This document shows, in pieces, positions 22,258-60,181 of a DNA stretch of 64,000 bases (position 1 is its first letter; each line of letters starts with the position of its first letter). A model generated the notes under the pieces. The model saw only the letters and a list, made by a program, of their open reading frames with translations. It was not told the origin of the DNA and searched no databases. Source of the DNA: a virus (lineage: Duplodnaviria > Caudoviricetes); the IMG/VR virus record IMGVR_UViG_3300010270_000379, positions 1 to 64,000 of that record, one strand, 5' to 3'. A program made the position numbers and the translations under genes.

Positions 22258-23706
22258 TTAGTAAAGTCCACCAGAATAACCAACGTTCTTAATAAGAGCA
22301 TTGTATTCAGGAGCACGAACTTCGAGCATACCGTAAAGTGCAACAACACCACGGTGAGCGAGGCTTGAATCTGTTGGAAGGTCGAAGTTTGACATTGCCA
22401 TCAACTGACCAAATGAAGTATTAGGCTTCATTTCATCTGTTGTAGGTGTAAGCAATACAATAGATGCTGTTCCTGGAAGGTCCTCATTCAAGTCTACTAC
22501 TACAGTAGTTGTATCAGGAGACTTAGCAACACGTACCATTTCCATCATTTCTGTACCACCGGCCTTAGAACGTGTGATAATAAATCCTGTAGCTGGTTCA
22601 CCGTTTGTATCAGGTGTAATAGTAAGAGTTACTTTTTCACCACTTGCAACGGCTACAGCAGATCCAAGAGGCTTAGCTGCTGAAATACCATAAGCATTTA
22701 CGGCATGTACGGCATACATATAATTTCCGGCCCATGCTGTTGTGAATTTAGATGCTGATTCACTTGCAGCAACGGCTGTAAAGTTAGAAGGTGTATTAGG
22801 TCTCTTAGCCTGGTTTCCGGCAGCTACTACAGGGCCCTTTACCTTAAACATCTTATCTGCACCGGCATCATCTGTAATACGAATAGTTGAACCTGTAGGA
22901 GTAAGAATATCAGGCAATTTCTGCAATGCAAAAGTATCATCACGTGGTGTAAGACGGAGACGTGAACTGTACATAGACTTAAACTGACGAGCAATAACAG
23001 GTGGGAAGTAAGCCTCTGACAAGTCACCACCTTTATCGAATACCTTCTGAGCAACTTCATCAAAGAGAGCTTCGCCGGCATCAATTGTATCACCATCAAT
23101 ATTTCCTGATTCACCAATTTCCAAACCACGAACATCCATAACTGTAGCGCGGAGTTTTTCAGCTACAGAAGTATTCTTTGCAGAATCTTCAATAATCTTC
23201 AAAAGTCCATCGTACTGTTTAGGAGATACGCTTGAATCACCGTGGAAAATACAACGCTCTGTACCCTTAGATACACGCATTACAGCAGCTACTTTAGATG
23301 CATTGATAGCATTTTCTACATTGTCTGTAAGTGTAAGAGGATGTGAAGTCTGCCACTTACTTGACATGTATTTTGTTTCGTAAATCTTACGAGAGAACTG
23401 TGGATCACCCTCTGGAGCTCTTTCAGATTCACCAACAAACAAGAATTCATCATCACCTACATCTGTTTCACGTTCAATCTGGTGAACAGTAGACTTAACA
23501 GGCAGTTTGTGAAGTTTATGGAACAACTTCAAATCTTTCTGTTTTACGTCAAGAACGGTTACAAGTGTAGCCTCCAAATCTTCACGCTGCAAAGATCTAC
23601 CCTGAGTATAATCTGCAGCATTTGTACCATAACCGGCTTCAAGAGCCTTTTCGAGTTCTGTATTCTGAACTTCATTGTCAAATTCATTAAAAATGCTTTC
23701 TTCCAT
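22258..23706 (-). CDS. Major capsid protein (SPO1/Twort-like style)
   Basis: LEKALEAGYGT...GRSLQREDLEATL N-arm, KYMSSKWQTS, IFHGDSSVSPKQYDGLLK and ALYGMLEVRAP. Confidence 0.9.
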   Translation of the reverse strand: MEESIFNEFDNEVQNTELEKALEAGYGTNAADYTQGRSLQREDLEATLVTVLDVKQKDLKLFHKLHKLPVKSTVHQIERETDVGDDEFLFVGESERAPEGDPQFSRKIYETKYMSSKWQTSHPLTLTDNVENAINASKVAAVMRVSKGTERCIFHGDSSVSPKQYDGLLKIIEDSAKNTSVAEKLRATVMDVRGLEIGESGNIDGDTIDAGEALFDEVAQKVFDKGGDLSEAYFPPVIARQFKSMYSSRLRLTPRDDTFALQKLPDILTPTGSTIRITDDAGADKMFKVKGPVVAAGNQAKRPNTPSNFTAVAASESASKFTTAWAGNYMYAVHAVNAYGISAAKPLGSAVAVASGEKVTLTITPDTNGEPATGFIITRSKAGGTEMMEMVRVAKSPDTTTVVVDLNEDLPGTASIVLLTPTTDEMKPNTSFGQLMAMSNFDLPTDSSLAHRGVVALYGMLEVRAPEYNALIKNVGYSGGLY

Positions 23707-23721: not shown

Positions 23722-25233
23722 TTACTGATTGTCGCGGACAATAGAACAAATCTTGTTCCAAACTGCCGGTTTAACCGACTTTACGCCGCCTTTCATTGCT
23801 TTCTGGAATTCTGAGTTATAGAACTGAACTTCTTCCGGTCCTATCTTGCCACCCTGAGCCGATTTACAAATTGCATCTTTGAAAGTATCAAAGTCTGCAT
23901 TTGTAGGCTTCTTATTAGCTGTAGGAGCAGCCGCACCACTTCCAGGCATTGACTTAGCTACTACACTCTGTCGCGCTACAGGTTCACCAAGAGCCTTTGC
24001 AATATCAATTACACTTCCCTTGATTTCATCTACTGACTTTTTGAGTTCTTCGTTTTCTTCACGGAGAGCATCAATTTCAGCGCCCATAGACTTTACGAGT
24101 TCTGTTGCATCGAGATAATCGTCATCTTCTTCAAGAGACTTCTCTACACCACAACCCTTCTTTACGCTGCCTTTGGCACCGCATTTTTCAACGTCATCTT
24201 CAATGTCTTTTTTTTCATCGCCTTCTGAATCGTCATCGAATTCGAACAGTGTTTCTTTTTCGATTTCTTCATCTTCTGGCTTTTTCTTTTCATCAGCGCT
24301 TTTCTTAACACCGATAGACTTCAAGATTTCGTCTACTGTTTCAGAAAAATTACCTTTGGCCATTTTTCTTCCTCCCTGTTCTATAATTTCAAGCATGGTT
24401 TCCCTTGCCTGACGTTTATCAAATCCCTTACCAATCAAATAAGCTGTTATTTCATTAGCATTGGTTAGATTTCCTTTGTTGATTTCCTGGATGCAATCTT
24501 TAATATCATTGATTTCCATTTCTTCTATGGATTTCTCTAATTCTTCTTTTGATTTTTCCATTGAATCAGCCGGATCCATTTCACCGTCATTAATTTCCAG
24601 GAGTTTCTCTGTTTCATCCTCAATATCTTCTTTCTGTAATCCGCGGCCACCTTCAAAATCAGCAGCATCAGCACCACTTCCGGCCTCTAAAGATTTACAA
24701 AAATCAACCATAGAGACTGACTTAGCAAACCTGGCACTTCCTACGGTCCAATTTACCGGTGATGTAGTAAGCGCTAAGTCATTCCACATAAACCCTGTTA
24801 CAGTCTCACTACCGTCTTTTTCTTTACGAATAGTAGGCATAATTCCACCAATAGAGGCTTTTACGCGGCTAGAATGATTTTTAAGAAGGTTGATGTAGTC
24901 TTTTGCAGCAGCTACACCCTTATAAAGAATTCCTTTTACAAAGGTAGATTTTCCATCTGTCCTAACTGAAATAGGTTCACCAATAATCTTTTCTTTATGG
25001 CTTTCAACTGTTCCATCTGGATTTCTTACTTTATGTTGGTGATCGTCTGAAATAACTCCATTAGTCAAAAAGTATTCTTTCGACTTCATCAATGCTGACT
25101 GCAGAGTTCTCTGATTCTGTAAATCAAGATTTTCGTTAGAGGCTTCTACTTCAAAAATGTAGTTTCCGTTTTCATCTTCCTGGCCTGAGATTGATTTACA
25201 AATATTGCCTTCAATTAAAATTTCATTATCCAT
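23722..25233 (-). CDS. Prohead protease/scaffold
   Basis: Start reassigned to MDNEILIEG (RBS GGAG). FEVEASNENLDLQNQ, DHQH, ASIGG and WNDLALTTSPVN protease motifs; acidic scaffold C-terminal half. Confidence 0.88.
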   Translation of the reverse strand: MDNEILIEGNICKSISGQEDENGNYIFEVEASNENLDLQNQRTLQSALMKSKEYFLTNGVISDDHQHKVRNPDGTVESHKEKIIGEPISVRTDGKSTFVKGILYKGVAAAKDYINLLKNHSSRVKASIGGIMPTIRKEKDGSETVTGFMWNDLALTTSPVNWTVGSARFAKSVSMVDFCKSLEAGSGADAADFEGGRGLQKEDIEDETEKLLEINDGEMDPADSMEKSKEELEKSIEEMEINDIKDCIQEINKGNLTNANEITAYLIGKGFDKRQARETMLEIIEQGGRKMAKGNFSETVDEILKSIGVKKSADEKKKPEDEEIEKETLFEFDDDSEGDEKKDIEDDVEKCGAKGSVKKGCGVEKSLEEDDDYLDATELVKSMGAEIDALREENEELKKSVDEIKGSVIDIAKALGEPVARQSVVAKSMPGSGAAAPTANKKPTNADFDTFKDAICKSAQGGKIGPEEVQFYNSEFQKAMKGGVKSVKPAVWNKICSIVRDNQ

Positions 25234-25253
25234 TTTCAAAAACTCCAAAAGAC

Positions 25254-25367
25254 AAAAAAAATAGGGCAGCCACAACGAATAACGTTATGACTGCCCTTTT
25301 CAGAACAAATCTTAATCTAAATATGGAATATATTATTATTATAAATCTATAATTTTACATTTGTCAA
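25254..25367 (-). promoter_or_regulatory. Late-type promoter with leader hairpin and terminator, copy 4 (protease-capsid operon)
   Basis: TTGACA-18-TATAAT; TGTTC-TGAAAA-GGGCA; GGGCAG...CTGCCC; T-run. Confidence 0.8.
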
Positions 25368-25681: not shown

Positions 25682-26881
25682 TTATACTTCTTCACCCTTC
25701 TTAGCTATCTTTTCAGCCGTGTACTTATTTTTACCGGTATTTGGATCCTTTTCAAAAGGAATAAAGTTATCATAGAAGGACCAATCATCGGCAAAATCTT
25801 TTACTTTATCAAAATTAGCTTCATTGCCTGTCATATTAAGTAATACATCTGGCGGCACAAATCTACCGGTAAAATCTTCTACATTCTTTTCGGTAGGGCT
25901 TTCAATATAACGTTTAATAGCACGTTTCAAACTTTCCTGTTTTGGAACATGCATATAATAAGCGCCTGTTTTATATCCGGCATCTTTAGCTAGTTTTAAT
26001 TCTTCAATCTGTTTATCAGCATTTGACATTGTAATATCCATTACAATATTAAGGCCCTGGGCCATAGCTGCCTTCATAAGCATTTTAGACAAATCTGAGC
26101 TTTCTTCATGGTAGGCCTTTGCTTTCCATCCTTCCCATTTTTCGCCGGATTCATTTGCTAATTCTTCTTTCAATGCATCTGGATCCACTACAATAACGTT
26201 ATCCTCATTGTATACACCGGCATCAGATTTCTTTTTATTGAAAGTAGACTTTCCAGAACCACCACGGCCCCCTAAAATCTGGAAAGTAGGCAATTCACCG
26301 TCTTTTGGTGTAGCTGCTGCAACTTTCTCAGGTGATAACAATTTTTTGATAATTGTTTCATGCAATTTCTGTCTTTCTGGAGTATAAATAGCGTTTACAC
26401 CTTCACCAGATTTACGGAATTTTGTAACTGTTTCAGGCTCTTTATTTGCACGTTCTAAGTCATATCTGAATTTCATTTCAAATTCAGGATGCTTTTTTAC
26501 AATAGGCAATTCAAGAATAGCCTTAATTGCGTTTTTCATTCCTTCTGGTGTAGCTGCATTAATTGATTCATCGTCATAAGTTCTTTTATAATCAGCGGCT
26601 TTAAATTTACTTGCTGCAACCTGTTTACGGCCGTATGTTGGAGCAAGCTGTTTAGTAGGTGTAGTTACCTCTTTTTTGCCTGTTCCAACACTTTCAGGCC
26701 CCTTCTTTTCTGAGTTTCCTTTAGGTGTATAAACTTCTCTCCATTTTCCAGGAGCAACCTTTTTATATTTTTTACCTCTCCACTCTCTTATTGTACCAAT
26801 TCCATAACCTCTTGATTTCTGAAAATCAATGTCATCAAGAAAAGTATTATAAACTGATTTCTTTACAAATAACTTTTTCAT
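25682..26881 (-). CDS. Virion cargo protein: shared N-terminal tag plus zeta-toxin-like P-loop kinase
   Basis: KSRGYGIGTIREWRGKKYKKVAPGKW tag; GGRGGSGKST Walker A, VVVDPDALK, YHEESS, NIVMDIT and GRFVP zeta motifs. Confidence 0.85.
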   Translation of the reverse strand: MKKLFVKKSVYNTFLDDIDFQKSRGYGIGTIREWRGKKYKKVAPGKWREVYTPKGNSEKKGPESVGTGKKEVTTPTKQLAPTYGRKQVAASKFKAADYKRTYDDESINAATPEGMKNAIKAILELPIVKKHPEFEMKFRYDLERANKEPETVTKFRKSGEGVNAIYTPERQKLHETIIKKLLSPEKVAAATPKDGELPTFQILGGRGGSGKSTFNKKKSDAGVYNEDNVIVVDPDALKEELANESGEKWEGWKAKAYHEESSDLSKMLMKAAMAQGLNIVMDITMSNADKQIEELKLAKDAGYKTGAYYMHVPKQESLKRAIKRYIESPTEKNVEDFTGRFVPPDVLLNMTGNEANFDKVKDFADDWSFYDNFIPFEKDPNTGKNKYTAEKIAKKGEEV

Positions 26882-26894
26882 TTTACACCTCCCA

Positions 26895-29708
26895 TTAAAG
26901 ACAATTACAGCGATTAAAGGCTTCACTTACCATCATTTCAGTAGAATTGAACAATTCAGGCTGCTCTGCAGAATAATCATTGAACAATGATTCATTTTCT
27001 TCTTCCGGCTCTTCTTCTTCATCTTCTTCAACAAACATATCTACAATGAAGTCATCAAAAAGAGATTTCTTTACAGTAATTCCACGTTTCTCTAGTTCTT
27101 CCTCAAATCTCTCAATTACTTCTGGATGTTCTTTAGCTGTTGTTTGATACAAAATAGCATCTCTTAAACCTAATTTAAGTTTATTATCAACCTTTGTATC
27201 TTCTGTAATGTATTCTTTTTTATCCATTACTTTATCAAGGTTGAATTTCAATCTGTCATAATTGAGTTTCAATGTTTCATCACTCATATCCGCCATTCTT
27301 TCAGTAAGATTTGCTGCTGCAGAATCGGAAAGTCTCTTGAAACGATCACCATAATGCTCTTTTATTGAGGCTACAAATTCCTCGTTTGTCTTTTTATATG
27401 CTTCTTTAAGAGCTGATTTTTTTTCATTAGCATCTTTTTTCGCCTGTCTACCCTTGCCATAATCCATTTTTTTATCTGAGCCGGACATAGGCATAAGGAT
27501 AGATGAACTAGAGCCGGTGTTAATCTCAATTGCCTTATCAGCTCTTTCACCTATCTGTAAAATGGATGTTTTACCAGATAAAGCATTTACCAGGTAATCA
27601 GCATTGATATTCATATAGTTAGTATCTTCTTTTGCCGGGCCCCAATCTTCGCTATATTTCATTTTTATATCTTTTGCTTCACCTACCGGAGTATCATCAA
27701 TGAATACTTTACCATCACGGAATTCAAGCTGAACAAGATTTGTACCTTTTTTATCAATAGCACCATCTTTCTGCATTTCTTTAATCTTATCTTTTACAAG
27801 TTTTGTATCTAAAGTTGCTGTCTGTTTAAGATCTTCTGGAATAACCTTAGAATAATTAGGGAATCTTGCATCTACATCAATTTTTTTGATATTAATTCCT
27901 GATTTATCAGTATTAATATCAACATAAGAACCATTTGGTATACCTTCAAGTTCTCCAACTTCAATAAATTTCATTCTACGAGCATCAGTAGTTATAAGTT
28001 TTCCATTTTCATAATAGACATGCTTCATAAACTCTCTACTATCCCACTTTGGAGCTACACAATTTTTAAGAGATTCAATCTCATTTGCAAGATCTTTAGA
28101 ATATGGCAATTGTACTTCATTTTCACCTACACTCTTATTACTTGCAATCGGCTGTAATTCATCAAAAGAAACAACCTTACCAGAATTATCTACACTGTAG
28201 ATTTTTTCAGTTTTTTCCTCTTTAGGAGTTTCCTTAGTTTCTTCTATAGTTTTTTCGGCTTCGGATTCTTCAAGAAGTTTTTTACATTCAGTATAAAAGG
28301 CAGCACTTAAATGATTAGAACAAAGTTCTACCTGATGATCTATATCACTTAGCAATTCAATATCAGTTTCATCTTTACTTGTAAACAATGCGTTATCTTT
28401 TACATGCTTTTCAAGTTTATTAATCAGCTTATTTTTATATTTAGAAATAACTTCATTAACGGTTGTACCTTCATCAGCATATTCTGAATAGCGTTTAAGC
28501 CTTTCATCAACAAGTTTTTTGTTTTCTTCAAGTTTTCCTTCTTTTATTATCTCCGGTAATTTTTCCTTAATTTTATCAAGTTTTTCCTTTAATTCTGCTT
28601 CTAATTTAGGCTTTGCTGTTTTTTCAAACTCTGTATTGATTTTATCAATACCTTCTTTACATCTAATTGCATTTGCAATTTCAGATCTTACAGCCCATTC
28701 TTTACCTTCTTTATCAACCTTAAATATAGCATCACCTACTTTTAATTCACCCTTACGAGCTACTTCGTTAATTTTATCAGCCATTTCAAGATATTTTACA
28801 CCCTCACCTTCATCATTTTTATCTACTCCACCAAAAGGCACTTCTTTAGTTTCAGTTTTCTTTTCATCTTCTGATTCTTCTTCATATCCAAATTCATTAT
28901 TAATAGCATCCTTCATACGGCCTGAAAGTTTTTCAAGTTCTTCACGGTATTTTTTTTCACCTTCTGAAATGTTTTTTTCTGAATAAATGAGACGTAACTT
29001 ACCTAAAGCCTCTAACTCTGGATCATTAAGTTCATTAGGATTCATCCCCTTTGCCTTTGCTTCTGGTCTTAATTTTTTAGCAACTTTATCATAGGCTTCT
29101 ACAATATTATCAAGAGTTTCAGCATCATTTTTCCCCTTTAATGATTGCTCATACTCTTTTTCATAATCTTCCTGTGTTTTTATTTTCTTTTCAGCCGGCT
29201 TAGAAGTTGTTTTACTTCCCATATCACCGTTATTCTTAGCATCTACAGCGGCACGGAGTTTATCAAGAACCGGCAAGTCAATTCCATTTTCATCAACAAA
29301 GCGCTGTTTATTCTGCATTACAAAGGCCATAAGGTCCTCAACGTTATCAATCTTCTGTACTCTTGCAATCAATTTACCAATTGCAATATTTGTACCACGG
29401 CCTTCTTTATCAAAAACTCTGGCCCATTTACCCGGAGCAATTTTCTTATACTTCTTTCCCTTCCAAATTCTGACTGTTCCTACACCGTAGCCGGCTTTCT
29501 GGATCCATTTTCCACTAATAAGAGACTTTTCAAGATGTGTATAATGTCCTTCCTGAGAATTGAAATAATCAATTGCTTTTTTTACATCTTTTTCATCCTG
29601 TTTTTTCAAGATTTCAATAATCTCTTTTTTAAGTTCTGCTAACTTTCTATCGTTTACAGCCTTACAAACATTCTTGAATTCACTAGCCTTTACCATGAAT
29701 CTTGCCAT
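26895..29708 (-). CDS. Virion cargo protein: shared tag plus DnaN (beta-clamp)-like domains
   Basis: KAGYGVGTVRIWKGKKYKKIAPGKW tag; TTDARRM, RFPNYSKVIP, INADYLVNAL and SILMPM beta-clamp motifs. Confidence 0.7.
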   Translation of the reverse strand: MARFMVKASEFKNVCKAVNDRKLAELKKEIIEILKKQDEKDVKKAIDYFNSQEGHYTHLEKSLISGKWIQKAGYGVGTVRIWKGKKYKKIAPGKWARVFDKEGRGTNIAIGKLIARVQKIDNVEDLMAFVMQNKQRFVDENGIDLPVLDKLRAAVDAKNNGDMGSKTTSKPAEKKIKTQEDYEKEYEQSLKGKNDAETLDNIVEAYDKVAKKLRPEAKAKGMNPNELNDPELEALGKLRLIYSEKNISEGEKKYREELEKLSGRMKDAINNEFGYEEESEDEKKTETKEVPFGGVDKNDEGEGVKYLEMADKINEVARKGELKVGDAIFKVDKEGKEWAVRSEIANAIRCKEGIDKINTEFEKTAKPKLEAELKEKLDKIKEKLPEIIKEGKLEENKKLVDERLKRYSEYADEGTTVNEVISKYKNKLINKLEKHVKDNALFTSKDETDIELLSDIDHQVELCSNHLSAAFYTECKKLLEESEAEKTIEETKETPKEEKTEKIYSVDNSGKVVSFDELQPIASNKSVGENEVQLPYSKDLANEIESLKNCVAPKWDSREFMKHVYYENGKLITTDARRMKFIEVGELEGIPNGSYVDINTDKSGINIKKIDVDARFPNYSKVIPEDLKQTATLDTKLVKDKIKEMQKDGAIDKKGTNLVQLEFRDGKVFIDDTPVGEAKDIKMKYSEDWGPAKEDTNYMNINADYLVNALSGKTSILQIGERADKAIEINTGSSSSILMPMSGSDKKMDYGKGRQAKKDANEKKSALKEAYKKTNEEFVASIKEHYGDRFKRLSDSAAANLTERMADMSDETLKLNYDRLKFNLDKVMDKKEYITEDTKVDNKLKLGLRDAILYQTTAKEHPEVIERFEEELEKRGITVKKSLFDDFIVDMFVEEDEEEEPEEENESLFNDYSAEQPELFNSTEMMVSEAFNRCNCL

Positions 29709-29735
29709 TTTCCAAATCCTCCCAGGAAATAAGTT

Positions 29736-29840
29736 AAAAAAAAATAAGGCAGCCGACTACTAAAAATAAGTAATCGACTGCCCTTTACAGACATATCTAT
29801 GTATTTACTTTATTATGTTACATAATTATTAAATAATCAA
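29736..29840 (-). promoter_or_regulatory. Late-type promoter with leader hairpin and terminator, copy 5
   Basis: TTGATT-17-CATAAT; TGTC-TGTAAA-GGGCA; GGCAGTCGA...TCGGCTGCC; T9. Confidence 0.75.
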
Positions 29841-29876
29841 TATTTTTATTTTTTACGCTAAATATAACGTTTTTAC

Positions 29877-29905
29877 TTGACTAATTTAATTATTCATACG
29901 ATAAT
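29877..29905 (+). promoter_or_regulatory. Antisense sigma70 promoter facing the 3' end of the nuclease gene
   Basis: TTGACT-17-GATAAT. Confidence 0.55.
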
Positions 29906-29937
29906 TTAATTAGTTCGGGATTTCTTAATCCCATCAG

Positions 29938-30732
29938 TTAAAGGGAAGTTCGTTTATGAGCTTCCCTTATTTCTTTTAAATCATAATTATGAAATTTTTG
30001 TTCTGTTTCTACCCACACAGATAATATTCCATTTTTTCCATCTTTTGTCATACTCTCTACAGCCTGGTCTAAAGGTAAATGAGTTTTATTTTTGTTCAAT
30101 CTTACCTGTGTAGGTTTATTTTCAATCACATGTATAAATACACCCTCACAATTATATTTTTTCATACCTTTTTGATAATTATTCATAATTGAATTATCTT
30201 CTTTTTTATCTGTTTGATTTTTTGACTTTTTAAAATCTACAGGAACACCATTTACTATTGCATCAACTTTTTTACTTCCTATAGAAGGTTCCTCAATTAA
30301 ATAAACCTTAAAACCTAAACTCGACAAAATAACAGCCTGTAACCTTTCTTTAAATTCATTATTGCCATGTACTCTGTTAGGATGTTCAAATATATAACCT
30401 TTATAAATATGTCCGGTTTCTGGTTCTGTTATTTTATAATATTTCTTTTTACATCCCTTATATCTATTACTAATCCAATCTTTTACTGATTGTGATAAAT
30501 TAGTTCTATATTTTGTTAATAGGTTTTCAAGTTCTATACCTCCGGCAGCTCTTTTTCGTTTATCTTCTTCTAAAAGTTTTACCCATCTATAGCCTTCATG
30601 TGTACCATGTTTATCTTTTATTTGAACTAACTTCTTTACTAAATTTGCCTTAACTCTTTTATTATGATTTGATTTTTCAATATATTTTTCAGACAATTCA
30701 TTATAAACATCAGATTGAACAAGTAATATCAT
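29938..30732 (-). CDS. Putative PD-(D/E)xK nuclease toxin (CdiA C-terminal tRNase-like)
   Basis: ERLQAVILSSLGFKVYLIEE...KKVDAIVNGVPVDFKK motif; N-terminal IEKS...LVKKLVQIKDKHGTHEGYRWVK. Confidence 0.65.
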   Translation of the reverse strand: MILLVQSDVYNELSEKYIEKSNHNKRVKANLVKKLVQIKDKHGTHEGYRWVKLLEEDKRKRAAGGIELENLLTKYRTNLSQSVKDWISNRYKGCKKKYYKITEPETGHIYKGYIFEHPNRVHGNNEFKERLQAVILSSLGFKVYLIEEPSIGSKKVDAIVNGVPVDFKKSKNQTDKKEDNSIMNNYQKGMKKYNCEGVFIHVIENKPTQVRLNKNKTHLPLDQAVESMTKDGKNGILSVWVETEQKFHNYDLKEIREAHKRTSL

Positions 30733-30743
30733 TTCATTTCTCC

Positions 30744-30780
30744 AAAAACAGGTAACGCATCCTATAAAGGACACGTTACC
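30744..30780 (-). terminator. Terminator-like hairpin between the large cargo gene and the nuclease gene
   Basis: GGTAACGTGTCCT-TTAT-AGGATGCGTTACC followed by TGTTTTT. Confidence 0.55.
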
Positions 30781-30811
30781 AGAAATCTTTTCTACTCTTG
30801 CAGATAGATTA

Positions 30812-33800
30812 CTATTTACGAATTAAGAAGCGGCCATCTTTAATAAGATATTTTGGAAGTGATTTCTCTATTTTACCGGCACCGTCAATGTCAATTTTAA
30901 TATCCTTACCGGTTTCTGCCATAATCTGATTTACAGCATAGCGGCCGTTTCTATTCAATTGTCGCTGCCATGCACCCTGAGAAGGAGACCATCTAAAGCC
31001 GTTATGTTTAAGTTTATCAATAACGTCTCTTTCTGGCTTTCCATCGTAGATAATCTGAATTCTATCAAGCTCTGGATTTTCATAGATATAACCACCATCA
31101 AAATCTACACGGCCGGTATTTGTGTTTGAACCTGATCCGCCTTCATTATTGCTTTCAGATGCTTTTCTTTCATCAATAACGGCCTGTCTTTTCTGTAGTT
31201 CTTCAAGTCTCTGTTTATTTCTACGAATATCGGCTGTCTGATTTGAGCCAAACGGATGTTCTATCCCCTGTTTAATAACTTCATCAGAATATCCTTTTTC
31301 TTTTGCAGCATTTACAGTCTGAGTTAAAACTTCACGTCTTTTAGCTCTATCTTCATCAGATCTATCAGCCCATTGCCAATTGGTAATACCGTTCTTTTTA
31401 CACATTTTGTTGTAAAGAAGTGTAACGTCATGTGAATCTTCCATGAACTTGATTTTTCCCTGGATTTTCTCAATAGCGTATGGATCTGTATTGTCAATCT
31501 TATCGCCATAACTCCATTTTCCCCTAGAGTAATCTTCAAAAACTTTCTTCTTTACATCTTCAACGCTATCATTACCGCCGGTATATTTCAGCTCTTTCAA
31601 ACGTTTTTCAGTGTTCTTAATAAACTTTTCTTTCTTTTCTTCAAAAGTTTCGTAGGCACGTCTTTCTGCTTCCATCTTCTGATTAAAACGTTTTGTATTA
31701 TATCTAGCCGGGCCGGCTACTGCCCATGAAGGGCCGGCAGCAAGTCTTTTACTTGCCATTTCATTATAGCTACTTCCAACTAATCCGGCATAAGCATTAA
31801 TACGCTCCTGGAAATATGCTTTTTGCTGCTCATTCATCTTTGAAACATTGAACTTATCACGGAAATTTGACATTTCAACATTTACATCATGCTGATAAAC
31901 TGAGCCGGCATTACCTGACATTGAAATATCACTAACTCTACGGGCTGTTTCTGAATCAATTCTAGGAATAGGTGTAACTATACCATCCCTAGCGTCTTTT
32001 TCATCCATTTCAGCCCTTGCAACGTTATCTCTTGCAGCATTAAGTTTCTTATCAAGTTCAAATCCGTTGCCCTGGCCTATCTGACTTTCAAGATCTTTTA
32101 ATTCTTTTTTTGCATCTTCAACGGCATCAGAATCGCTCATTTTTCCGTTATAAGCGGCATCGTGTAAAGTCAAAAGCTCTCTACGATCATCACCGGTGTA
32201 ATTCTTTGTTGAATCTGTAAGTCTGGTAACTTCGGCCATAAGCTCTTTTATTTTTGAGCTACCGTTAAGCCATTTCTGATAATCAGAATCAGGCCCCATA
32301 TCCTTTTCACTCAATCCACCACCAAAACCGTTATTCTTTTCATAAAGAGCAACGTTTTCTTTTTTCTGTTTAGTGATTTCTTTACCAAGTTTCTTATATT
32401 CTGCTACAGCTTCATCCTTAGTAAAATTAGAATAATCGACTACAGGCTCATTTTCTTCCGGCTCAACAAGTCTAAATCCGGCCGCATTATCATTGCCTAA
32501 CATAGCATTAGAGCGATTTTCATGCTTCTCTGCTTCTGTTTCTTCCGGCTCTGTATCAGGCTCATTCTTTACTTCTTCAAGTTTCTGTTTAAGCTGCTCA
32601 CGATAGTCTTTTTTACTCTGTATTGTTTCTTCATCATCAAGATTGTTGATTTCAATACCGAGTTTAATAATTCTATCTTCCAAAGTCTGTATTTTTTCTT
32701 CTTTAGAAAGTCCACCAAGATATACAGGAGGTTCTTTTTCAAGGGCCTCAGCAAATTTATCAAGCAATTCACCAAATTTTTTAGCTTCTTCTTTTTCAGC
32801 CTTCTTTTTCTTTTCTTCCATTTCTTTCTGGTATTGTCTGGTTTTTGCTTCCTTCCAGATTTCTTTATTTTTTTCCTGTATATCTCGTCTTTCCCTATAG
32901 GCTTTCAGTTCTTCTTCTGTAGGCTCTGTAAGCTGTTTTTCAAGGTCCTTAATCTGGTTTTCAATTTCTGTCTGCTGCTCTTTTGTCAAACTAGCCCATT
33001 TTGTAGCACGGCCACGATAAAGTTCACGTTTCAAAGCCATAAGTTTAAGATGGTCGTAATATGGATGATCCGGGAATACACTACAACTATCTTTCTCAAA
33101 ATAATCTGTCATCATATCAGTATTATTTTCAGGATAGAAAATAGAAGGAATACTAGCACCGTAACTATCAGCATACAAGCGAATATATTCACTTCCATCA
33201 TCAGCTTCACGAATTGTAGCGTCAATCTTTTCAAGTTTACCGGATTTATCTTTAATACCATCTTTTGTAAATCTGTATCGAGGAATATTTGAAGTATCTG
33301 AGCTTTCATTATAGGCATTACTTACACCCATAACAGTATTAAAGAACTTCTCAGCAATTGTTGAACCTGTTGCACCGTCAAGCTGCTCTTTAAGATCGTT
33401 TACTTTCTTCCAAACTTCTGTAAATGTTTCATCGTCATTAGGCATATATCTAGGTCGATAATTCTCTTTTTCGGCCATTTCTTTCAAGTCTACAACGATA
33501 TAACCAGGTCGCTTAAACTTATCTTCATAGTTGATTCTTACAGATGGATTGTCGATTGTTTCAGTATCACCCAAAGAGAATGAATAGCCATCACCAAAGG
33601 CCAAAGCATCTGAGTAATAACCACCGAATTTCTTATAAAGCCAATCACTAGAAATAGTCTGGCCCTTTACCTTACGTTTAATCCATTCATTGATTGTATC
33701 ATGGTATACAGAAGGAATTTTGAATGAGCCTTTATTTTCTTCTTTAAGTCTATTTCTAAATTCAGCAATCTTCTTTTCAACTTCATCTTTTTCTTTTCTG

Positions 33801-34753
33801 GCAGCACGTCTTTTTATATCTTCTTCCTGTGTTGTATGTCTATTGCTCCATCCGCCATTCTGCTTAAATTCCTTTTCAAGAACATTATAACGGTCTATCA
33901 GGGCCTTAAATTCAGCCTTGTCTTTTTCAATCTTAGCTACTTCTTCGACAGTTTTTTCCTGTTCTTTCTTGAAGTCTTTTTTAGCGTTCTGGTTGCCTTT
34001 CATAGCTTCACTTAAAGATGTAGTATCTTTAATTTCAGTCTGAACGGCCTCGTTAGTTCCGTTAATATCCTGTTTTTTAGCATTTTCTGTAGCTGTTTCA
34101 GTAACTTTTTCTTCTGCAGTAGGTGTAACTTTCTGTACATCTTTTGCTGCAAATCGGCCCATAGAACCATCATCAAAATTAATAAATACCATACCATTAT
34201 TAAAGTCTTTTACAACTTTTCCGGTCTGGCCTTTATAAGTTACTTTATCACCTACGGCAATTTTACCCTGTACAGGTTTTAATATCTCTTTTACTTTTTC
34301 TGTAAATGTTTTTTTGCCACCGTTCAATGCTGTCTTAGCTGTTCTTACGGCTTCTTGTAATTCTGAAACAATATCAAGTGTTTTTCCGTTTGTATCCTGG
34401 AATCTGTTTACATTTTCCATAACAATCTGCAGTAATTCATCTGTAGATTTTGCGTTCATTACGGCCTTTTTAAGATATGCTATAGACTGTTTTGCACCAC
34501 GGCTATTAGATTCATAAATCAATCTCCATTTGCCCGGAGCAATCTTTTTATATTTACGGCCTCGCCATTCTCTTACAGTTCCAATACCATAACCACGGCT
34601 TTTCTCAATCTCACTAAATGTGGATGGATTCATAACATTGTAGATGTATTCAAGCTGATTAAGAGATTTATTAATCTCTGCCGGAGCATCATCTGTCTGC
34701 TTATTCAAAATCGCAATAATCTTCTTCTTAAAGTAATTCAAGTCTTTAGCCAT
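30812..34753 (-). CDS. Large polyvalent-type cargo protein: shared tag, KOW-like motif, C-terminal DUF3560-like region
   Basis: Start reassigned to MAKDL. KSRGYGIGTVREWRGRKYKKIAPGKW tag; PSWAVAGPARYN and KPERDVIDKLKHNGFRWSPSQGAWQRQL. Confidence 0.7.
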   Translation of the reverse strand: MAKDLNYFKKKIIAILNKQTDDAPAEINKSLNQLEYIYNVMNPSTFSEIEKSRGYGIGTVREWRGRKYKKIAPGKWRLIYESNSRGAKQSIAYLKKAVMNAKSTDELLQIVMENVNRFQDTNGKTLDIVSELQEAVRTAKTALNGGKKTFTEKVKEILKPVQGKIAVGDKVTYKGQTGKVVKDFNNGMVFINFDDGSMGRFAAKDVQKVTPTAEEKVTETATENAKKQDINGTNEAVQTEIKDTTSLSEAMKGNQNAKKDFKKEQEKTVEEVAKIEKDKAEFKALIDRYNVLEKEFKQNGGWSNRHTTQEEDIKRRAARKEKDEVEKKIAEFRNRLKEENKGSFKIPSVYHDTINEWIKRKVKGQTISSDWLYKKFGGYYSDALAFGDGYSFSLGDTETIDNPSVRINYEDKFKRPGYIVVDLKEMAEKENYRPRYMPNDDETFTEVWKKVNDLKEQLDGATGSTIAEKFFNTVMGVSNAYNESSDTSNIPRYRFTKDGIKDKSGKLEKIDATIREADDGSEYIRLYADSYGASIPSIFYPENNTDMMTDYFEKDSCSVFPDHPYYDHLKLMALKRELYRGRATKWASLTKEQQTEIENQIKDLEKQLTEPTEEELKAYRERRDIQEKNKEIWKEAKTRQYQKEMEEKKKKAEKEEAKKFGELLDKFAEALEKEPPVYLGGLSKEEKIQTLEDRIIKLGIEINNLDDEETIQSKKDYREQLKQKLEEVKNEPDTEPEETEAEKHENRSNAMLGNDNAAGFRLVEPEENEPVVDYSNFTKDEAVAEYKKLGKEITKQKKENVALYEKNNGFGGGLSEKDMGPDSDYQKWLNGSSKIKELMAEVTRLTDSTKNYTGDDRRELLTLHDAAYNGKMSDSDAVEDAKKELKDLESQIGQGNGFELDKKLNAARDNVARAEMDEKDARDGIVTPIPRIDSETARRVSDISMSGNAGSVYQHDVNVEMSNFRDKFNVSKMNEQQKAYFQERINAYAGLVGSSYNEMASKRLAAGPSWAVAGPARYNTKRFNQKMEAERRAYETFEEKKEKFIKNTEKRLKELKYTGGNDSVEDVKKKVFEDYSRGKWSYGDKIDNTDPYAIEKIQGKIKFMEDSHDVTLLYNKMCKKNGITNWQWADRSDEDRAKRREVLTQTVNAAKEKGYSDEVIKQGIEHPFGSNQTADIRRNKQRLEELQKRQAVIDERKASESNNEGGSGSNTNTGRVDFDGGYIYENPELDRIQIIYDGKPERDVIDKLKHNGFRWSPSQGAWQRQLNRNGRYAVNQIMAETGKDIKIDIDGAGKIEKSLPKYLIKDGRFLIRK

Positions 34754-34784
34754 CTTAATTTTCCTCCCAGGAACGAAAAAAAAT

Positions 34785-34902
34785 AAAAAAAGGCAGCTAC
34801 CAAAAAACAGATCCAAAAATCTGTTAATTGATAACTGCCCTTTTCAGAACATATTATTTGTAATGTTTAAGTTATTTTATAACAGTATTACCCAAAAATC
34901 AA
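34785..34902 (-). promoter_or_regulatory. Late-type promoter with leader hairpin and terminator, copy 6
   Basis: TTGATT-17-TAAAAT; TGTTC-TGAAAA-GGGCA; GGCAG...CTGCC; T7. Confidence 0.78.
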
Positions 34903-34905
34903 TTA

Positions 34906-35112
34906 CTAATTGCCTGATAATAAATCGTCTATTTTTTCTGTAAATGATTTTTTCACCGGTTTTTCAATTATAGATTCCTCACCGTGTAATTGTTTCATAT
35001 ACTGATTAAATTCCTCTACAATTCCGGCCGGAGCGCCTTCTTTAAGATGCCAATTATCTTCTTCCATAACAAAATATGGAGAATCTAAAAATAGTGGTCT
35101 ACTTCCTATCAT
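34906..35112 (-). CDS. Small acidic protein, candidate immunity for the upstream metallopeptidase
   Basis: ATGA overlap with the peptidase gene; FLDSPYFVMEEDNWHLKEGAPAGIVEEFNQYM. Confidence 0.55.
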   Translation of the reverse strand: MIGSRPLFLDSPYFVMEEDNWHLKEGAPAGIVEEFNQYMKQLHGEESIIEKPVKKSFTEKIDDLLSGN

Positions 35113-37199
35113 ACCATACCTCTCATATATTTCTTATATTTTAATGTTTCCTTAAAAACTTCAACTGCAAAAGCAGAAGGATTTTCACTTCCTAAAGCCT
35201 GTTGTAAACACTCAGCACCAAATTCGTCTGCATCTGTTGTAGCATATTCCGATATACCAAATTTTATAATATCATCCTGTTTAGGTCCACCTTTTTTACC
35301 TCGCATTTTCAATCGTTTAGTTACATTTTGTTTTATTCTTTTTGCAAGCCTTCCATGTGTCATAACATGATAATATTCATGGTATGTAATATCTTTTGCC
35401 GATGTTCCTTTAGGATGGAAAGATCCTTCTGTTCCCTCATAAGTATCTTGAAAATTTGAATAATCACTATAATTTTTTGAATTATAGGTAATCTCTCCAC
35501 CCCTGGCAAAAGCCCACCAATTTTTATAACATGGTTCACACTTCATTGAAATATTTCTACCTTTTTGTTCTGGAAATATAGCAAATAACCGTTCCATGCA
35601 CTTAAACACATCTTTAGCAGCATTTACATCCATTCTTTTTAAGTCTAATCGTTTGTTTCCTTCATCAGAATACCAATCTTTAGACTTAATCAGGTTTTCA
35701 ACATCTTCCGAAATTTTACACTCATTTATTTTTTCATCCTTGCCATATTTATAACCTCGTAAATAATAATAAGCTATCGGCCCCATAAAAACATCAAGTT
35801 TCTTTTCAAAACTATCTCTTTCTTCTGCAAGTTCATTAGCTTGTTTTCTGTAGCTTAAAACTTCATCCCATATTTCATGTCTACTTTCATCGTGGTTTAG
35901 TAATAATTCATGGTATTTATTTCTTGCTTCATTTTCTTTTTTAATTACATCTTTTAATTTTTCCTTTAGTGTATCTCTTTCAGCCATAAGAGAATTTACA
36001 CCTTCCAGGGCTTTAGTTACTTCTTCATCGGAATAAGTTTTTAGTCCATTATCCTCATTAATCTTATTTATCTTTTCTTCCCTGGCAACCTTAGCAGCTC
36101 TATTTTTCTCTTTTATTTCTTCATTTACTTTATGCTTTACACGATTTTCAACATCTTTTAATAATTCATCAAAATTAGAAATACCATTAATAACACACCA
36201 TCTTTGAGCAGCTTTCTTATCTGTTATATTTTTCATAAGAGTAATTAAATTTGTATAAACAGCCCATGTAGAATTTTTGTGTTCATTTACAAATTCATTA
36301 ATCTTATTATTAAAATCAACAATAGCACTGTTTTCTGAATCTGGAATATCAGCCCTGTTAACATTTTTTTCGTTTTCAATTCCTACAAAAAAGTCTTTTT
36401 TAATATAATTCTTTTCAACTTCATTAAAGCGCCACTGTATTCTTGATAATAAAGGATGCAATTCACCTTTTAATCTTTCATAAGCTGCTGATTTATTCCA
36501 ATCCCCTTCATTTTCTGCTTCACGTAACTTTTTTGTAATATTACCGTAAAGTTCTGTTGCCTGATCGTGAATAGCTTTCATAGTTTTATAATCGCTATTA
36601 TCATAATCAACATGAACGGTTTTATTATAAGCTGCATCTATTTCCTTTATTTCATCTGAAATTCTTTCATCTTCACTCTTTCCATTTTCCTTCTTAAACT
36701 GTTCTATCTGTTCCTGGGTAGATGGTTTTCCTGTATTCAAGCGGCCTCTACTTTCTTTTACAGCGTTTTGAAGTTCTTCCACAATCGGCAGCAACTTACC
36801 ATCAGCATCCATGAACCTGTTAGTATTTTCCATTACAAGTTGTAATAATTCGTCTATGCTCTGAGCATTTGCAATTTTCTTTTTGATGATATTAATAGAC
36901 TGTCTGGCCCCTCTTGTATTTGAATCGTAAATCCTTCGCCACTTTCCAGGAGCTATTTTTCGAAATTTCTGGCCCTTCCAAACTCTAACCGTACCTATTC
37001 CATAGCCGGCCTTTTCAATTCCTATTTCAGAATATGTCTTTTTAATTGAATTGTCATAATCCTCTATGGCTTTACTTACAATTTCTTCATCATTCTTTTC
37101 CAGGACCTTAATTAATTCCTTCTTAAAATAATTTAATTGCGCTGCATCCTTCTTTTTATTCAAGCTCTTAATTAATTCAGCACTTACTACAACCTTCAT
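35109..37199 (-). CDS. Virion cargo protein: shared tag plus zincin metallopeptidase
   Basis: KAGYGIGTVRVWKGQKFRKIAPGKW tag; FHPKGT...ITYHEYYH and ISEYATTDADEFGAE. Confidence 0.8.
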   Translation of the reverse strand: MKVVVSAELIKSLNKKKDAAQLNYFKKELIKVLEKNDEEIVSKAIEDYDNSIKKTYSEIGIEKAGYGIGTVRVWKGQKFRKIAPGKWRRIYDSNTRGARQSINIIKKKIANAQSIDELLQLVMENTNRFMDADGKLLPIVEELQNAVKESRGRLNTGKPSTQEQIEQFKKENGKSEDERISDEIKEIDAAYNKTVHVDYDNSDYKTMKAIHDQATELYGNITKKLREAENEGDWNKSAAYERLKGELHPLLSRIQWRFNEVEKNYIKKDFFVGIENEKNVNRADIPDSENSAIVDFNNKINEFVNEHKNSTWAVYTNLITLMKNITDKKAAQRWCVINGISNFDELLKDVENRVKHKVNEEIKEKNRAAKVAREEKINKINEDNGLKTYSDEEVTKALEGVNSLMAERDTLKEKLKDVIKKENEARNKYHELLLNHDESRHEIWDEVLSYRKQANELAEERDSFEKKLDVFMGPIAYYYLRGYKYGKDEKINECKISEDVENLIKSKDWYSDEGNKRLDLKRMDVNAAKDVFKCMERLFAIFPEQKGRNISMKCEPCYKNWWAFARGGEITYNSKNYSDYSNFQDTYEGTEGSFHPKGTSAKDITYHEYYHVMTHGRLAKRIKQNVTKRLKMRGKKGGPKQDDIIKFGISEYATTDADEFGAECLQQALGSENPSAFAVEVFKETLKYKKYMRGMV

Positions 37200-37208
37200 T
37201 TATGGCCT

Positions 37209-37376
37209 CCCACGTAAAATATGACTTTTTTGCTATTTACGGATTTACCGTATTTAACACTTGTTTTCTTGTCTAAAACTGTCTAAAATCTTGTCTATTT
37301 ACGTCTAATATGTAATTAATAATGTCTAAAAATGTCTAACTATCCACGTAAAATATTACTTTTAGACTTTTTAGAC
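37209..37376. repeat. GTCTA(A) array bracketed by a 20-bp direct repeat
   Basis: GTCTA at 37271, 37281, 37293, 37303, 37324, 37334; inverted TTAGAC at 37362 and 37371; CCACGTAAAATAT(G/T)ACTTTT at 37210 and 37344. Confidence 0.75.
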
Positions 37377-39779
37377 TTCTGGATAATATCTAATCCAGGA
37401 ACCTCTACACCACGGATGAACTATACCGACCGGACAATCACCCTCATTTTTACCATCCCATATAGCATATTTAGCATAAGGATCTTTAATTCTCTCATTA
37501 GGCAATGGAACATCACTCCATAAAACGATAGTTCCATTAAGTTTTTTACACTGTTTACAAGTGTTATCATCCATCATTTCAAAACGCTTAAAATAAACTT
37601 TAGAATTCGGCTCTGAGTTATATACTTCTTCCTGGATATATGCACTATTAGCGGCCATCTGGACCTCGCTATCAGCAATTCTCTGCATATCTCTATTAAG
37701 ACTTGCACACTTATCAAAAAGATTCTGAGCTACAACGGATTTACTTTGTTTATCTCTAATACCATCAATAATTATTTGCTGTATGTTATTTCGTATGTCA
37801 TCACTTACTCTAGTAACTCTCTGGGCCGCTGAATCTACTGCTATTTGAATTCGGGCCTGTCTCTCTCTGGAAATAACATCCCCGAATTTATCTTTCATGT
37901 TTTTAATAGAATCACCAATCCAATCAACGTCATATCTTTTGGCTTTAATATCAGATAATGACATTTTTCTTACGGCTTCCAGGCTATTTGTTTTTGAAAG
38001 TCTATCAAGAATAATTCCTAAACTTTCTGCAGACAATACAATTTTCTCACCTATTCCGGCATAATTACGGTTAAGATATTTTTCAAGCTCTACAACAAAC
38101 ATTTTCCATTCTGATTCTTTAATAGGAAGTCCTGTAGATGGATTATACAAAATCTTGCCTTTATGCTTTAATTCACCGGCCTTACTTACAATTCTAATAT
38201 CCGGCAAGTCAAAATATGCAATAACAAAATTATAAATAGCTCTGGTCCTATTTGTGAACTCTTTGAAATACTTATCTACAAGTTCTTCCTGAGCTTTATA
38301 TACAAAAGTCTCACCTTTACTAGCACCGGAAATATCAGCATCAAGAGACAACGCAATTTTATGTACGGCCTTTTCAATTTTGCTTCTGTCAAAATCTGTT
38401 ATTCTTACAAGTAAATTACCATAACTTGTAGATGCATCTGCCGGAATATGTTTAATCATAAACGGCTGATTATTTGCAATAGCATTTAAGGCCTTATTTA
38501 CCTGTTCAAGTTTCTGCTGTTTATTATTTTCTGTAATATCAGTAATGTTTATATCAAAAGATTTATGAACCATTTTCCCCTTATGACTGAAAATAAAGCT
38601 CTTAAACTGCTCCATTGTCATTGTTGTCATGCTGCCATAAAAACCTGGCCTATCGTATTGTTTCATATAGGCTTTTTTTGCATCCTCAGCACTTGCAAAA
38701 CATAACATACATTTATCTTCATCGTATTTATGTGTTACCGGATCATTCTGGTGGATTACATAAACCTTTTCAGCCTTTTTATCTGGACCTACATAGCAAT
38801 CTAAGTGATCTTTGTCTACTCCTACAGTTCCACGGATATAACCATAATCATAATTCATATATGTCCGCCATTTATGACCGTCTTTATCTACTCCTGAACG
38901 ATATGAGCCTTTTTTATTTTCGATAGAAATATCCATACCATAAAGTTTAGTTCTACCCTGTAATTTATGGCCGGAATAAGTTAGAGATTTATTCAAATCT
39001 TTATAGGCTTTATATGCAATTACATTCTCTGCATCCTGATGCAATTGTTCTTCTGCAACATACCTTGTTAGTTTATCATCGTATTTTTGAATAATAGAAT
39101 CATAATCTAAACCTTTTTTATTACAAAGATGATGTAATTCTACTTTCCAATCAGTAAAAAGAGATTTATTTATAGTTTCAGGATTAATAATATAAGCAAC
39201 TTTTTTATTTAATACACGTTTATCTTCTTTTTCACAATTTTTTACAACTGATGCAGATAATTTATCATTGTTACCTATTTCAAACTTTACAAGTTTTTCA
39301 TCTTGCCAATCTCCACCACAAGCAATTATGAAATATGTATCAGAAAGTTCCATAAGTTCACAATTCTCTAAATCTTGTCCTTTTGGATAACCTTCAATCT
39401 CATAAACTTTTTTAGGAATTAAATGAAAATAATCTCTTTCATCATCCATCAGTTTTAACATTTCGTTTTGCAATTCTGGTGATAATCTTCTAGTCCACAA
39501 ATTAAACAGTTTATCAGTAATAGTTAGAGATTTCTCATATCTTTTTCTATCAATTTCTCTATCTAATAAAATTATTTTTCGTAAATCTTCATCAACTCTA
39601 TCTAATAAATCCACATTTTTATTTGACTGTAATTTGCTTGTTATTTGCTTATTTTGAGAATTTAAGGCTGATTTTTGTAGTTTTTCTGCAAATTCCGGCT
39701 TAATATCCTCGATTTTTGGAGATTTTAATTTGACTGTCATTTGCTCAACTACATCTTTTTTTACCCTTACATTAGCCAT
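37371..39779 (-). CDS. MuF (gp7-like) head protein with an internal inorganic-pyrophosphatase-like domain
   Basis: C-terminal IADSEVQMA...TCKQCKKLNG...HPWCRG MuF motif; ISIENKKGSYRSG...DYGYIRGTVGVDKDHLDCYVG...DEDKCML InPase motif. Confidence 0.85.
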   Translation of the reverse strand: MANVRVKKDVVEQMTVKLKSPKIEDIKPEFAEKLQKSALNSQNKQITSKLQSNKNVDLLDRVDEDLRKIILLDREIDRKRYEKSLTITDKLFNLWTRRLSPELQNEMLKLMDDERDYFHLIPKKVYEIEGYPKGQDLENCELMELSDTYFIIACGGDWQDEKLVKFEIGNNDKLSASVVKNCEKEDKRVLNKKVAYIINPETINKSLFTDWKVELHHLCNKKGLDYDSIIQKYDDKLTRYVAEEQLHQDAENVIAYKAYKDLNKSLTYSGHKLQGRTKLYGMDISIENKKGSYRSGVDKDGHKWRTYMNYDYGYIRGTVGVDKDHLDCYVGPDKKAEKVYVIHQNDPVTHKYDEDKCMLCFASAEDAKKAYMKQYDRPGFYGSMTTMTMEQFKSFIFSHKGKMVHKSFDINITDITENNKQQKLEQVNKALNAIANNQPFMIKHIPADASTSYGNLLVRITDFDRSKIEKAVHKIALSLDADISGASKGETFVYKAQEELVDKYFKEFTNRTRAIYNFVIAYFDLPDIRIVSKAGELKHKGKILYNPSTGLPIKESEWKMFVVELEKYLNRNYAGIGEKIVLSAESLGIILDRLSKTNSLEAVRKMSLSDIKAKRYDVDWIGDSIKNMKDKFGDVISRERQARIQIAVDSAAQRVTRVSDDIRNNIQQIIIDGIRDKQSKSVVAQNLFDKCASLNRDMQRIADSEVQMAANSAYIQEEVYNSEPNSKVYFKRFEMMDDNTCKQCKKLNGTIVLWSDVPLPNERIKDPYAKYAIWDGKNEGDCPVGIVHPWCRGSWIRYYPEV

Positions 39780-40183: not shown

Positions 40184-40211
40184 ACTTCCCCCTAACTTTT
40201 TATGGTTAAAC

Positions 40212-40308
40212 AAAAAAGCAGCCGGCAACAATCCTTAAAAGATATTGCCGACTGCTCATTACAAACAAATCGTATTTATATTATAAATCACTTTTTGTAT
40301 AAAATCTA
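40212..40308 (-). promoter_or_regulatory. Late-type promoter with leader hairpin and terminator, copy 7 (LPD3-MuF operon)
   Basis: TAGATT-17-TATAAT; TGTTT-GTAAT-GAGCA; GCAGTCGGCAA/TTGCCGGCTGC; T6. Confidence 0.75.
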
Positions 40309-60144: not shown

Positions 60145-60181
60145 TTTTAAGGTTCCTCCCAAAAATTAGAAAATTTAAAAT

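Follow-up and report, generated by a model that had tools for sequence, protein, structure and literature searches.

We analysed positions 1 to 64,000 of the IMG/VR record IMGVR_UViG_3300010270_000379, a stretch of 64,000 nucleotides called the window below; the record is a provirus of 75,648 bases, estimated to be 94% complete. Between the genes of a MuF-domain protein and the prohead protease lie four genes whose products share one N-terminal module, made of a leader and a compact basic domain (the tag), and which differ in the remainder of the protein (the payload). These four genes and a fifth, untagged gene are listed here, with an arrow marking putative cleavage positions.

35109..37199, minus strand: putative cargo gene 1, 696 amino acids (aa); leader residues 1-63 (37011-37199); tag 36720-37010, from A64 after IEK; HExxH near the payload C-terminus
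30812..34816, minus strand: putative cargo gene 2, 1334-aa frame with probable start M22 (34753); leader 34601-34753; putative cut IEK↓S; tag 34307-34600; large payload
29938..30774, minus strand: 278-aa gene without a tag, starting probably at 30732; the short leader alone (residues 1-20, 30673-30732), ending in IEK↓S, then a different small basic hairpin
26895..29708, minus strand: putative cargo gene 3, 937 aa; leader 29496-29708; tag 29205-29495; DnaN-like stretch in the payload; acidic C-terminal tail after VKK↓S (26898-27065)
25682..26926, minus strand: putative cargo gene 4, 414-aa frame with a GTG start, probable start M16 (26881); short leader 26816-26881 ending in FQK↓S; of the tag, just the core (26702-26815); kinase domain of the zeta-toxin type 25799-26311

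All four tagged proteins contain the core GYGxGTxRxW...APGKW that a first-pass annotation of this DNA had pointed out. The GYG stands at residue 40 (25682-26926), 73 (26895-29708), 75 (30812-34816) and 65 (35109-37199), and 15 columns are invariant across the four copies (G-Y-G-x-G-T-x-R-x-W-x-G-x-K-x-x-K-x-A-P-G-K-W). A profile of the tag matches exactly these four copies in the 75.6-kb provirus, with E-values from 7.7e-20 to 2.4e-54, and another scoring of the four gave 4e-18 to 3e-52; on these values and the shuffle controls given below, a chance or compositional explanation was rejected. The annotation had described the four genes as adjacent: all of them are indeed tagged, but the 278-aa gene with its short leader had been left out. 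Three of its further observations hold. The tag follows K-S or K-A in all four cases (the lysine being kept in 147 of 148 relatives), three of the genes share a helical continuation of about 60 residues that the zeta-kinase gene lacks, and the C-terminal parts are unrelated, the best payload-versus-payload BLASTP E-value being 0.3. Over a 72-nt core the DNA of the four copies is only 67-82% identical and yet the protein motif is kept, which indicates conservation at the protein level and not recent duplication. An explanation of the tag as a recombination handle was set aside on account of the same divergence.

The module is widespread. A search of 1.84 billion protein cluster representatives with the tag profile yielded 447 clusters at E ≤ 1e-3, of which 363 also pass E ≤ 1e-10 and 85 pass E ≤ 1e-30; genomic loci were found 40 times in IMG/VR and five times in a genome collection. 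In the 150 best clusters the tagged proteins are 99 to 2321 residues long, and in 141 of these clusters the first tag copy starts at residue 20-80. The tag is therefore mostly N-terminal, as had been claimed, but 15 of the 150, as well as several IMG/VR proteins, hold a second, internal copy. Nearly every internal tag has a recognisable leader before it, several of these with a start of Met and three hydrophobic residues followed by K-K-S. Since the internal copies carry their own leader, these proteins are in-frame fusions of tag-payload units.

Elsewhere in the tagged proteins Pfam recognises ddrB-ParB, LPD1, LPD3, PBECR1, PBECR2 and PBECR3 (RNases), InPase, ART-PolyVal and ADPrib_exo_Tox, and further Zeta_toxin, an Eco57I-type methylase with SNF2 helicase, PolyA_pol, DNA_pol3_beta_3, DUF5661 and DUF3990. 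Combinations of LPD1, ddrB-ParB, PBECR, ADP-ribosyltransferase, methyltransferase and SNF2 domains occur in single tagged proteins of the relatives. Most of these families belong to the repertoire of polyvalent proteins, which Iyer et al. 2017 (PMC5512222) argued to be packaged and injected. The payload segments are mosaic and recombine among relatives; the close relative L001 keeps the 696-aa gene and has a 772-aa tagged gene after it, in place of the 1334-aa one.

As for the payloads of the window itself, the zeta-type kinase is clear, with PF06414 matching residues 206-376 of the 414-aa protein at 86.5 bits against a gathering cut-off of 22.3 (E = 2.2e-24). The proposed beta-clamp likeness of the 937-aa protein is present but weak: phmmer aligns about 95 residues with DnaN in the Protein Data Bank (PDB; 4trt, E = 4.4e-4), the window protein has no Pfam match, and PF02768 matches three homologues (best 6.5e-5). 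An HExxH motif can be read in the 696-aa protein, as stated, but no family match backs the name zincin. The DUF3560-like region assigned to the 1334-aa protein could not be recovered, with no DUF3560 match even at E ≤ 1; the C-terminal 200 residues of this protein match phrog_19458 ('primase', 1.5e-23), and phrog_6744 also matches. Neither this C-terminus nor the HExxH region has a Pfam or PDB sequence match. Within the window, Pfam matches to the polyvalent repertoire are confined to the zeta toxin of the 414-aa protein and to the InPase and MuF domains of a neighbouring 802-aa protein; PF04233 (Phage_Mu_F) finds the latter protein and none of the four tagged ones.

Leader, tag domain and short leader

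In an alignment of 148 N-termini the whole of the first ~165 residues is conserved. The leader starts as M-(A/K)-(R/K)-F-(M/V)-(V/I)-K-(K/A)-S and runs into an amphipathic helix, K-L-x-x-F-K-K-E-I-I-E-I-L-K-K; then come V-K-K-A, often L-E-K-S, and finally I-E-K-(A/S/G) directly before G-Y-G-V-G-T-V-R. Conservation is strongest in the tag, where W74, W87, G69, G76 and K81 do not vary; its 32-residue core has a net charge of +7 to +8. AlphaFold2 models the leader as two long helices, with a predicted local distance difference test score (pLDDT) below 50 in the linker at residues 39-47 and 56-63, and the pre-tag site falls in the second of these low-confidence segments. Modelled alone, the tag is predicted to be a confident small domain of three strands followed by three helices (mean pLDDT 83.5).

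Database comparisons gave little. The module has no match in Pfam (E ≤ 1, LPD models included), in PHROGs or, by sequence, in the PDB; Foldseek of the module and of the tag alone against the PDB returned nothing at E ≤ 1e-3, and the ESM Atlas held no usable match for the module. VIA-align (wide) and BFVD were likewise searched with both: the best VIA-align hit of the tag, at Z 8.5, covers the three helices only, and BFVD contained just an unnamed family member, A0A8S5RV08.

A related but shorter leader stands at the N-termini of untagged neighbours. These start as M-x-K-hydrophobic(3)-(R/K)-K-(S/D)-hydrophobic-(Y/F)...hydrophobic-E-K↓(S/A/G), over about 20 residues, and continue with a small basic hairpin, for example H-K-Y-I-R-R...G-K-G-Y-x-Y or I-T-D-K-N-G-H-x-K-T-V-Y. 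In the window the short form is found in the 278-aa gene (hidden Markov model, HMM, E = 3e-8) and in the zeta-kinase gene. Among 2,225 open reading frames (ORFs), the short-leader HMM matches only first-methionine N-termini of coding-strand head-module ORFs, and a regular expression for it gives 26 N-terminal matches as against five internal ones on the coding strand and four on the non-coding strand. Tagged and untagged cargo-like genes thus share the short leader, which makes the leader, and not the tag, their common element.

The short leader also opens a second type of N-terminal module, in which it is followed by H-K-Y-I-R-R-x-P-K...G-K-G-Y-N-Y-F-Y-P and a helical region. This family comprises 63 clusters; its proteins are 900-2250 aa long and carry LPD1 and ADP-ribosyltransferase payloads, and the module itself has no Pfam match; examples are L031:5445-9578, L041:4368-9572, L003:11554-14682 and L029:1473-7964. 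In a profile-profile comparison the alignment of the two modules did not extend beyond their first 13 residues (E = 0.049), and homology of their hairpin domains is not claimed.

At the other end, about 45 tagged proteins, the 937-aa protein of the window among them (26898-27065), carry a conserved C-terminal tail of 60-70 residues. It follows a (V/I)-K-K↓S site and consists of S-L-F-D-D-F, an acidic run, the stretch N-D-Y-S-A-E-Q-P-E-L-F-N-S and an end with a Cys. In every case it reaches to within five residues of the C-terminus; it was found on tagged proteins only and has a charge of -18 in the 937-aa protein. This tail could serve as a second signal or as a mask for the basic tag.

A candidate protease motif

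The junction before the tag belongs to a motif, hydrophobic-x-K-(S/A), which we tested as [LIVMFC]-x-K-[SA]. It is 6-fold enriched in the protease-scaffold protein; that of the window contains 15 such motifs against 2.2 expected (z = 9.3), and no other window ORF comes close. Across 14 protease-scaffold homologues there are 184 against 29 expected, with five control motifs at 0.7-1.7 times expectation, and several of the sites, placed at domain borders, do not vary in the alignment. The leaders of 134 tagged proteins reach 5.5 motifs per 100 residues (472 observed versus 63 ± 8 in shuffles), as compared to a density of 0.10 for the tag and 0.37 for the payload. Along the 937-aa protein, residues 7, 16, 44, 61 and 71 carry the motif, and then none follows until 881.

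The same motif marks the N-arm junction of the capsid protein, LEK↓ALEAGYGT in the window (23563-23655). Of 13 relatives, most have (L/V)-(E/Q/N)-K↓A-L-x-A-G-Y-G-T here, with deviations in the last positions among the remotest ones (G-S-G-V in the most distant). The first-pass annotation had seen an echo of this N-arm in the tag. The likeness is limited to hydrophobic-(E/Q)-K↓A...GYG.T, and a real copy of the N-arm is found in the protease protein instead. There, right after the catalytic domain (24604-24702), about 30 residues reading F-C-K↓S-L-E-A-G-S-G...G-R-G-L-Q-K-E-D repeat the capsid stretch L-E-K↓A-L-E-A-G-Y-G...G-R-S-L-Q-R-E-D. Among relatives, the pair changes in step from phage to phage (A-L-Q-R-E-D types versus A-L-I-P-E-D types), which suggests mimicry of the N-arm or a shared docking or cleavage element.

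In the Staphylococcus phage vB_SauH_SPJ2 (Herelleviridae), an unannotated acidic protein of 312 aa lies between the prohead protease and the capsid gene (L046:4941-5876) and consists in part of a run of V-(S/T/E/A)-K-S repeats, with eight strict motifs against 0.9 expected. It looks like a carrier of the same protease code in a cultured member of this family. The capsid of this phage, a relative of phage K, reads L-S-K↓S-F-Q-T-G-Y-G.

The prohead protease of T4 cleaves at (L/I)-x-E↓. By analogy with T4, where the protease motif concentrates in core or scaffold proteins and ends the capsid targeting sequence (CTS), the enriched motif, the K-S/K-A junction before the tag included, is best read as a putative cleavage site of the prohead protease. 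On this basis several further cuts can be envisaged. The putative sites at the joints of fused tag-payload units could allow the same protease to separate them, and in the MuF protein the motifs L-N-K↓S (K264) and V-H-K↓S (K406) bracket the InPase domain (residues 274-395), so that InPase could be releasable as a free domain of about 140 residues. The tag, which comes after the putative cut, would stay on the mature protein.

Genomic context of the tagged genes

In nearly all of the 45 loci there are genes homologous to those for MuF, protease, capsid, neck or sheath in the window; the exceptions are L032, which shows a portal gene instead, and the very short L038, which shows the tag alone. 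Wherever the flanking DNA suffices, terminase, portal, MuF, protease, capsid or sheath genes are nearby. The tagged genes usually lie between MuF and protease. In L023, L028, L037 and L041-L043 they stand among the neck genes, between capsid and sheath, and in L030, L033 and L034 the tag and a MuF C-terminal domain form part of one protein. With its varying position, the module goes with the virion genes of one capsid lineage as a cluster and not with one slot among them. All 45 loci are late or head modules of phages, to which the tag was found restricted.

In the window, the head-region genes all share the minus strand and make up the head portion of a late operon. Those around the tagged genes, and the distant portal gene, are:

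40317..42032, minus strand: large terminase (Terminase_6C, 2.4e-7)
39779..40231, minus strand: 150-aa ORF between terminase and MuF, with a weak match to LPD3, a polyvalent-protein domain (E = 0.003)
37371..39779, minus strand: 802-aa head protein; InPase domain at 38595-38960, Phage_Mu_F domain at 37506-37790
23722..25275, minus strand: prohead protease with an acidic, scaffold-like C-terminal half (phrog_1028), probable start 25233; candidate catalytic serine S127 in the 503-aa numbering
22258..23706, minus strand: major capsid protein (phrog_752), related to Herelleviridae capsids
58543..60162, minus strand: portal protein (PF04860, 7e-10), 16.5 kb from the terminase gene

A tail sheath gene follows further along from the capsid gene. 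By tblastn the capsid relatives are mainly Herelleviridae capsids at 26-28% identity, and blastn with the capsid-protease region gave no match. The nearest genome matches to the tag are metagenome-assembled genomes of Treponema (rumen, horse gut) and one of Bacilli, and related proteins are named 'hypothetical protein [Treponema sp.]' at NCBI; the phage is probably a temperate myovirus of gut Treponema.

Two details of the gene order stand by themselves. The 150-aa ORF is kept beside MuF in relatives, and in L003 a stretch homologous to it lies within the same long open frame as the MuF protein. The portal gene of the window provirus is upstream of the terminase gene, with early or replication genes between the two, as opposed to its place between terminase and MuF in L001, L004, L008 and L035; judging from these gene orders, the displacement is a rearrangement or assembly quirk of this provirus.

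Readings of the module and known systems

Taken together, the sequence data suggest that the four tagged genes, and probably the 278-aa gene, encode head-internal cargo composed of leader, basic tag domain and payload. On balance, and with modest confidence, we lean towards the leader as the address, with the prohead protease trimming the cargo and the basic tag domain being retained. The leader (20 to 70 residues with an M-x-K-hydrophobic(3)-K-K-S start) would take the cargo into the assembling procapsid along with the protease-scaffold protein, and the prohead protease would then cut it into small peptides that are lost, as is the T4 CTS. The mature protein would begin with (A/S)-G-Y-G-x-G-T, and its basic domain would anchor the cargo to the packaged DNA or to the inner head and might also aid its exit. 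The payloads would be swappable anti-host or anti-defence enzymes of the polyvalent-protein repertoire, and the giant relatives would be in-frame strings of units, separable by the same protease. Of the earlier proposal of a modular head-loading address for an injected arsenal, the single N-terminal module, the swappable payloads and the location in head clusters stand, but the tag is probably not the minimal shared address, because the leader is common to untagged neighbours.

A bolder form of this idea, which we offer tentatively and would not ourselves bet on, is that of a transplantable code for loading and processing. A leader of about 20 residues would load any protein, and the protease, cutting at hydrophobic-x-K↓(S/A), would dice giant polyvalent proteins into effectors that each start with a DNA-tethering basic domain. 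Polyvalent proteins would then be polyproteins matured in the head, with the InPase of the MuF protein released likewise.

Several points weigh against the leader as a protease-trimmed address. The reading of hydrophobic-x-K↓(S/A) as a cleavage site comes from enrichment, and the sequences behind the motif statistics are interrelated, so that the z-scores overstate their independence. In the literature on this protease family and on Herelleviridae-type capsids we found no published cleavage site; one phage K peptide begins at the capsid junction, but it is tryptic and does not define an N-terminus. The conserved K-(S/A) positions of the leader could be structural, one of them being part of a predicted helix. 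There is some circularity in the short-leader HMM, for which the matches of the regular expression were the input. The tag may bind DNA, as its charge suggests, and it has no recognisable fold. Finally, a tblastn search with the module found nothing among 50,697 records of cultured phages.

Among the alternatives, the tag with its helical extension could itself be the head-loading address, binding capsid, portal or MuF, with the residues upstream a dispensable pro-peptide or spacer. Its invariant residues, its confidently predicted compact fold, its co-occurrence with one capsid, protease and MuF lineage only, and its depletion of the putative protease motif, which would let it survive maturation, all speak for such a role. 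Neighbouring cargo-like genes share the leader without having the tag, however, fusion of the tag to the MuF domain itself in three loci is hard to square with MuF as its receptor, and an address kept on the mature protein departs from the T4 precedent; we consider this alternative unlikely. We give a still lower standing to the view that the module is a pro-domain or functional domain of paralogous effectors, whether for binding nucleic acid in the newly infected cell or for keeping a toxic payload inert until the protease removes the leader (and the acidic tail), with packaging decided otherwise. This would suit the charge of the tag core and the acidic tail that could mask it in about 45 tagged proteins, following K-K↓S, and there is a parallel in the ArdC-N domain of polyvalent proteins, which also favours the N-terminus and binds DNA (PMC5512222). 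It leaves unexplained why a common 20-residue leader stands at the N-terminus of otherwise unrelated cargo genes and why putative sites of a procapsid protease are concentrated in the leader.

It is also conceivable, if improbable, that the proteins are expressed late, act in the cytoplasm and form no part of the virion, their N-terminus having been kept by common descent with exchange of 3' cassettes. Such exchange agrees with the mosaic payloads and the recombination of segments among relatives, and packaging itself is inferred. Against this, the divergence of the tag copies at the DNA level with the protein motif kept points to selection on the protein, and head and neck genes enclose the tagged genes in the loci; moreover, the leader is rich in the very motif that marks the scaffold protein and the capsid junction.

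For very few systems (T4, P1 and, by inference, MuF) is it understood in detail how a phage selects the proteins that it loads into its head and injects, and the question is open for the large class of polyvalent proteins. The module described here is a sequence-defined, widespread candidate loading signal with a candidate protease code, and it comes with natural examples of payload exchange and unit fusion. If the proposal is right, it would serve to annotate injected effectors in gut phage metagenomes and could become a cargo-loading handle for engineered capsids.

The closest precedent is T4, whose internal proteins (IPI-III, Alt) are diverse defence proteins sharing only the CTS, which brings them into the core of the scaffold and is removed, a prohead-protease site marking its end (PMC3012670). 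The cargo of the window likewise has a short conserved N-terminal leader ending in a scaffold-enriched motif, and both the short-leader HMM and the regular expression find a short N-terminal sequence common to otherwise unrelated head-module proteins. We see no sequence relation to the CTS, however, the putative motif being hydrophobic-x-K↓(S/A); the leader often extends to 60-70 residues with up to five sites, a conserved basic domain of 100 residues follows that T4 proteins lack, and the payloads are large multi-domain proteins. In P1, DarB is a giant polyvalent-type antirestriction protein sent to the head by its N-terminus, the first 30 residues of which suffice for packaging a reporter (PMC9024508), but P1 relies on stepwise Dar assembly, whereas here one module recurs across paralogous genes and hundreds of clusters.

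The polyvalent proteins of Iyer, Burroughs, Anand, de Souza and Aravind 2017 have the same payload domains and the same location in head gene clusters. Their packaging and processing were proposed to proceed via MuF fusion or MPTase autoproteolysis (PMC5512222), whereas the present N-terminal module matches no Pfam model, LPD or other, and its pattern suggests a role for the prohead protease and for a leader of its own. MuF polymorphic toxins of temperate phages also join a conserved, head-associated N-terminal part to variable C-terminal toxins (Jamet et al. 2017, PMC5576092); the four tagged proteins, by contrast, have no MuF domain, MuF being a separate neighbour gene that is fused to the tag only in some relatives. 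In phiKZ and SPN3US, as outlined in PMC10052503 and PMC7411985, a morphogenetic protease trims many head-internal proteins at a short consensus motif, and the removal of propeptides from ejection proteins by a prohead protease is a likeness to our proposal. These are jumbo phages with another protease motif and, as far as those accounts describe them, no common folded tag domain or modular payload exchange. The concept is thus already known from the T4 CTS, the P1 DarB signal and MuF fusions. What is new is this family, with its dense putative protease code in the leader, a basic domain that would be retained, several paralogues per phage, hundreds of clusters and unit fusions.

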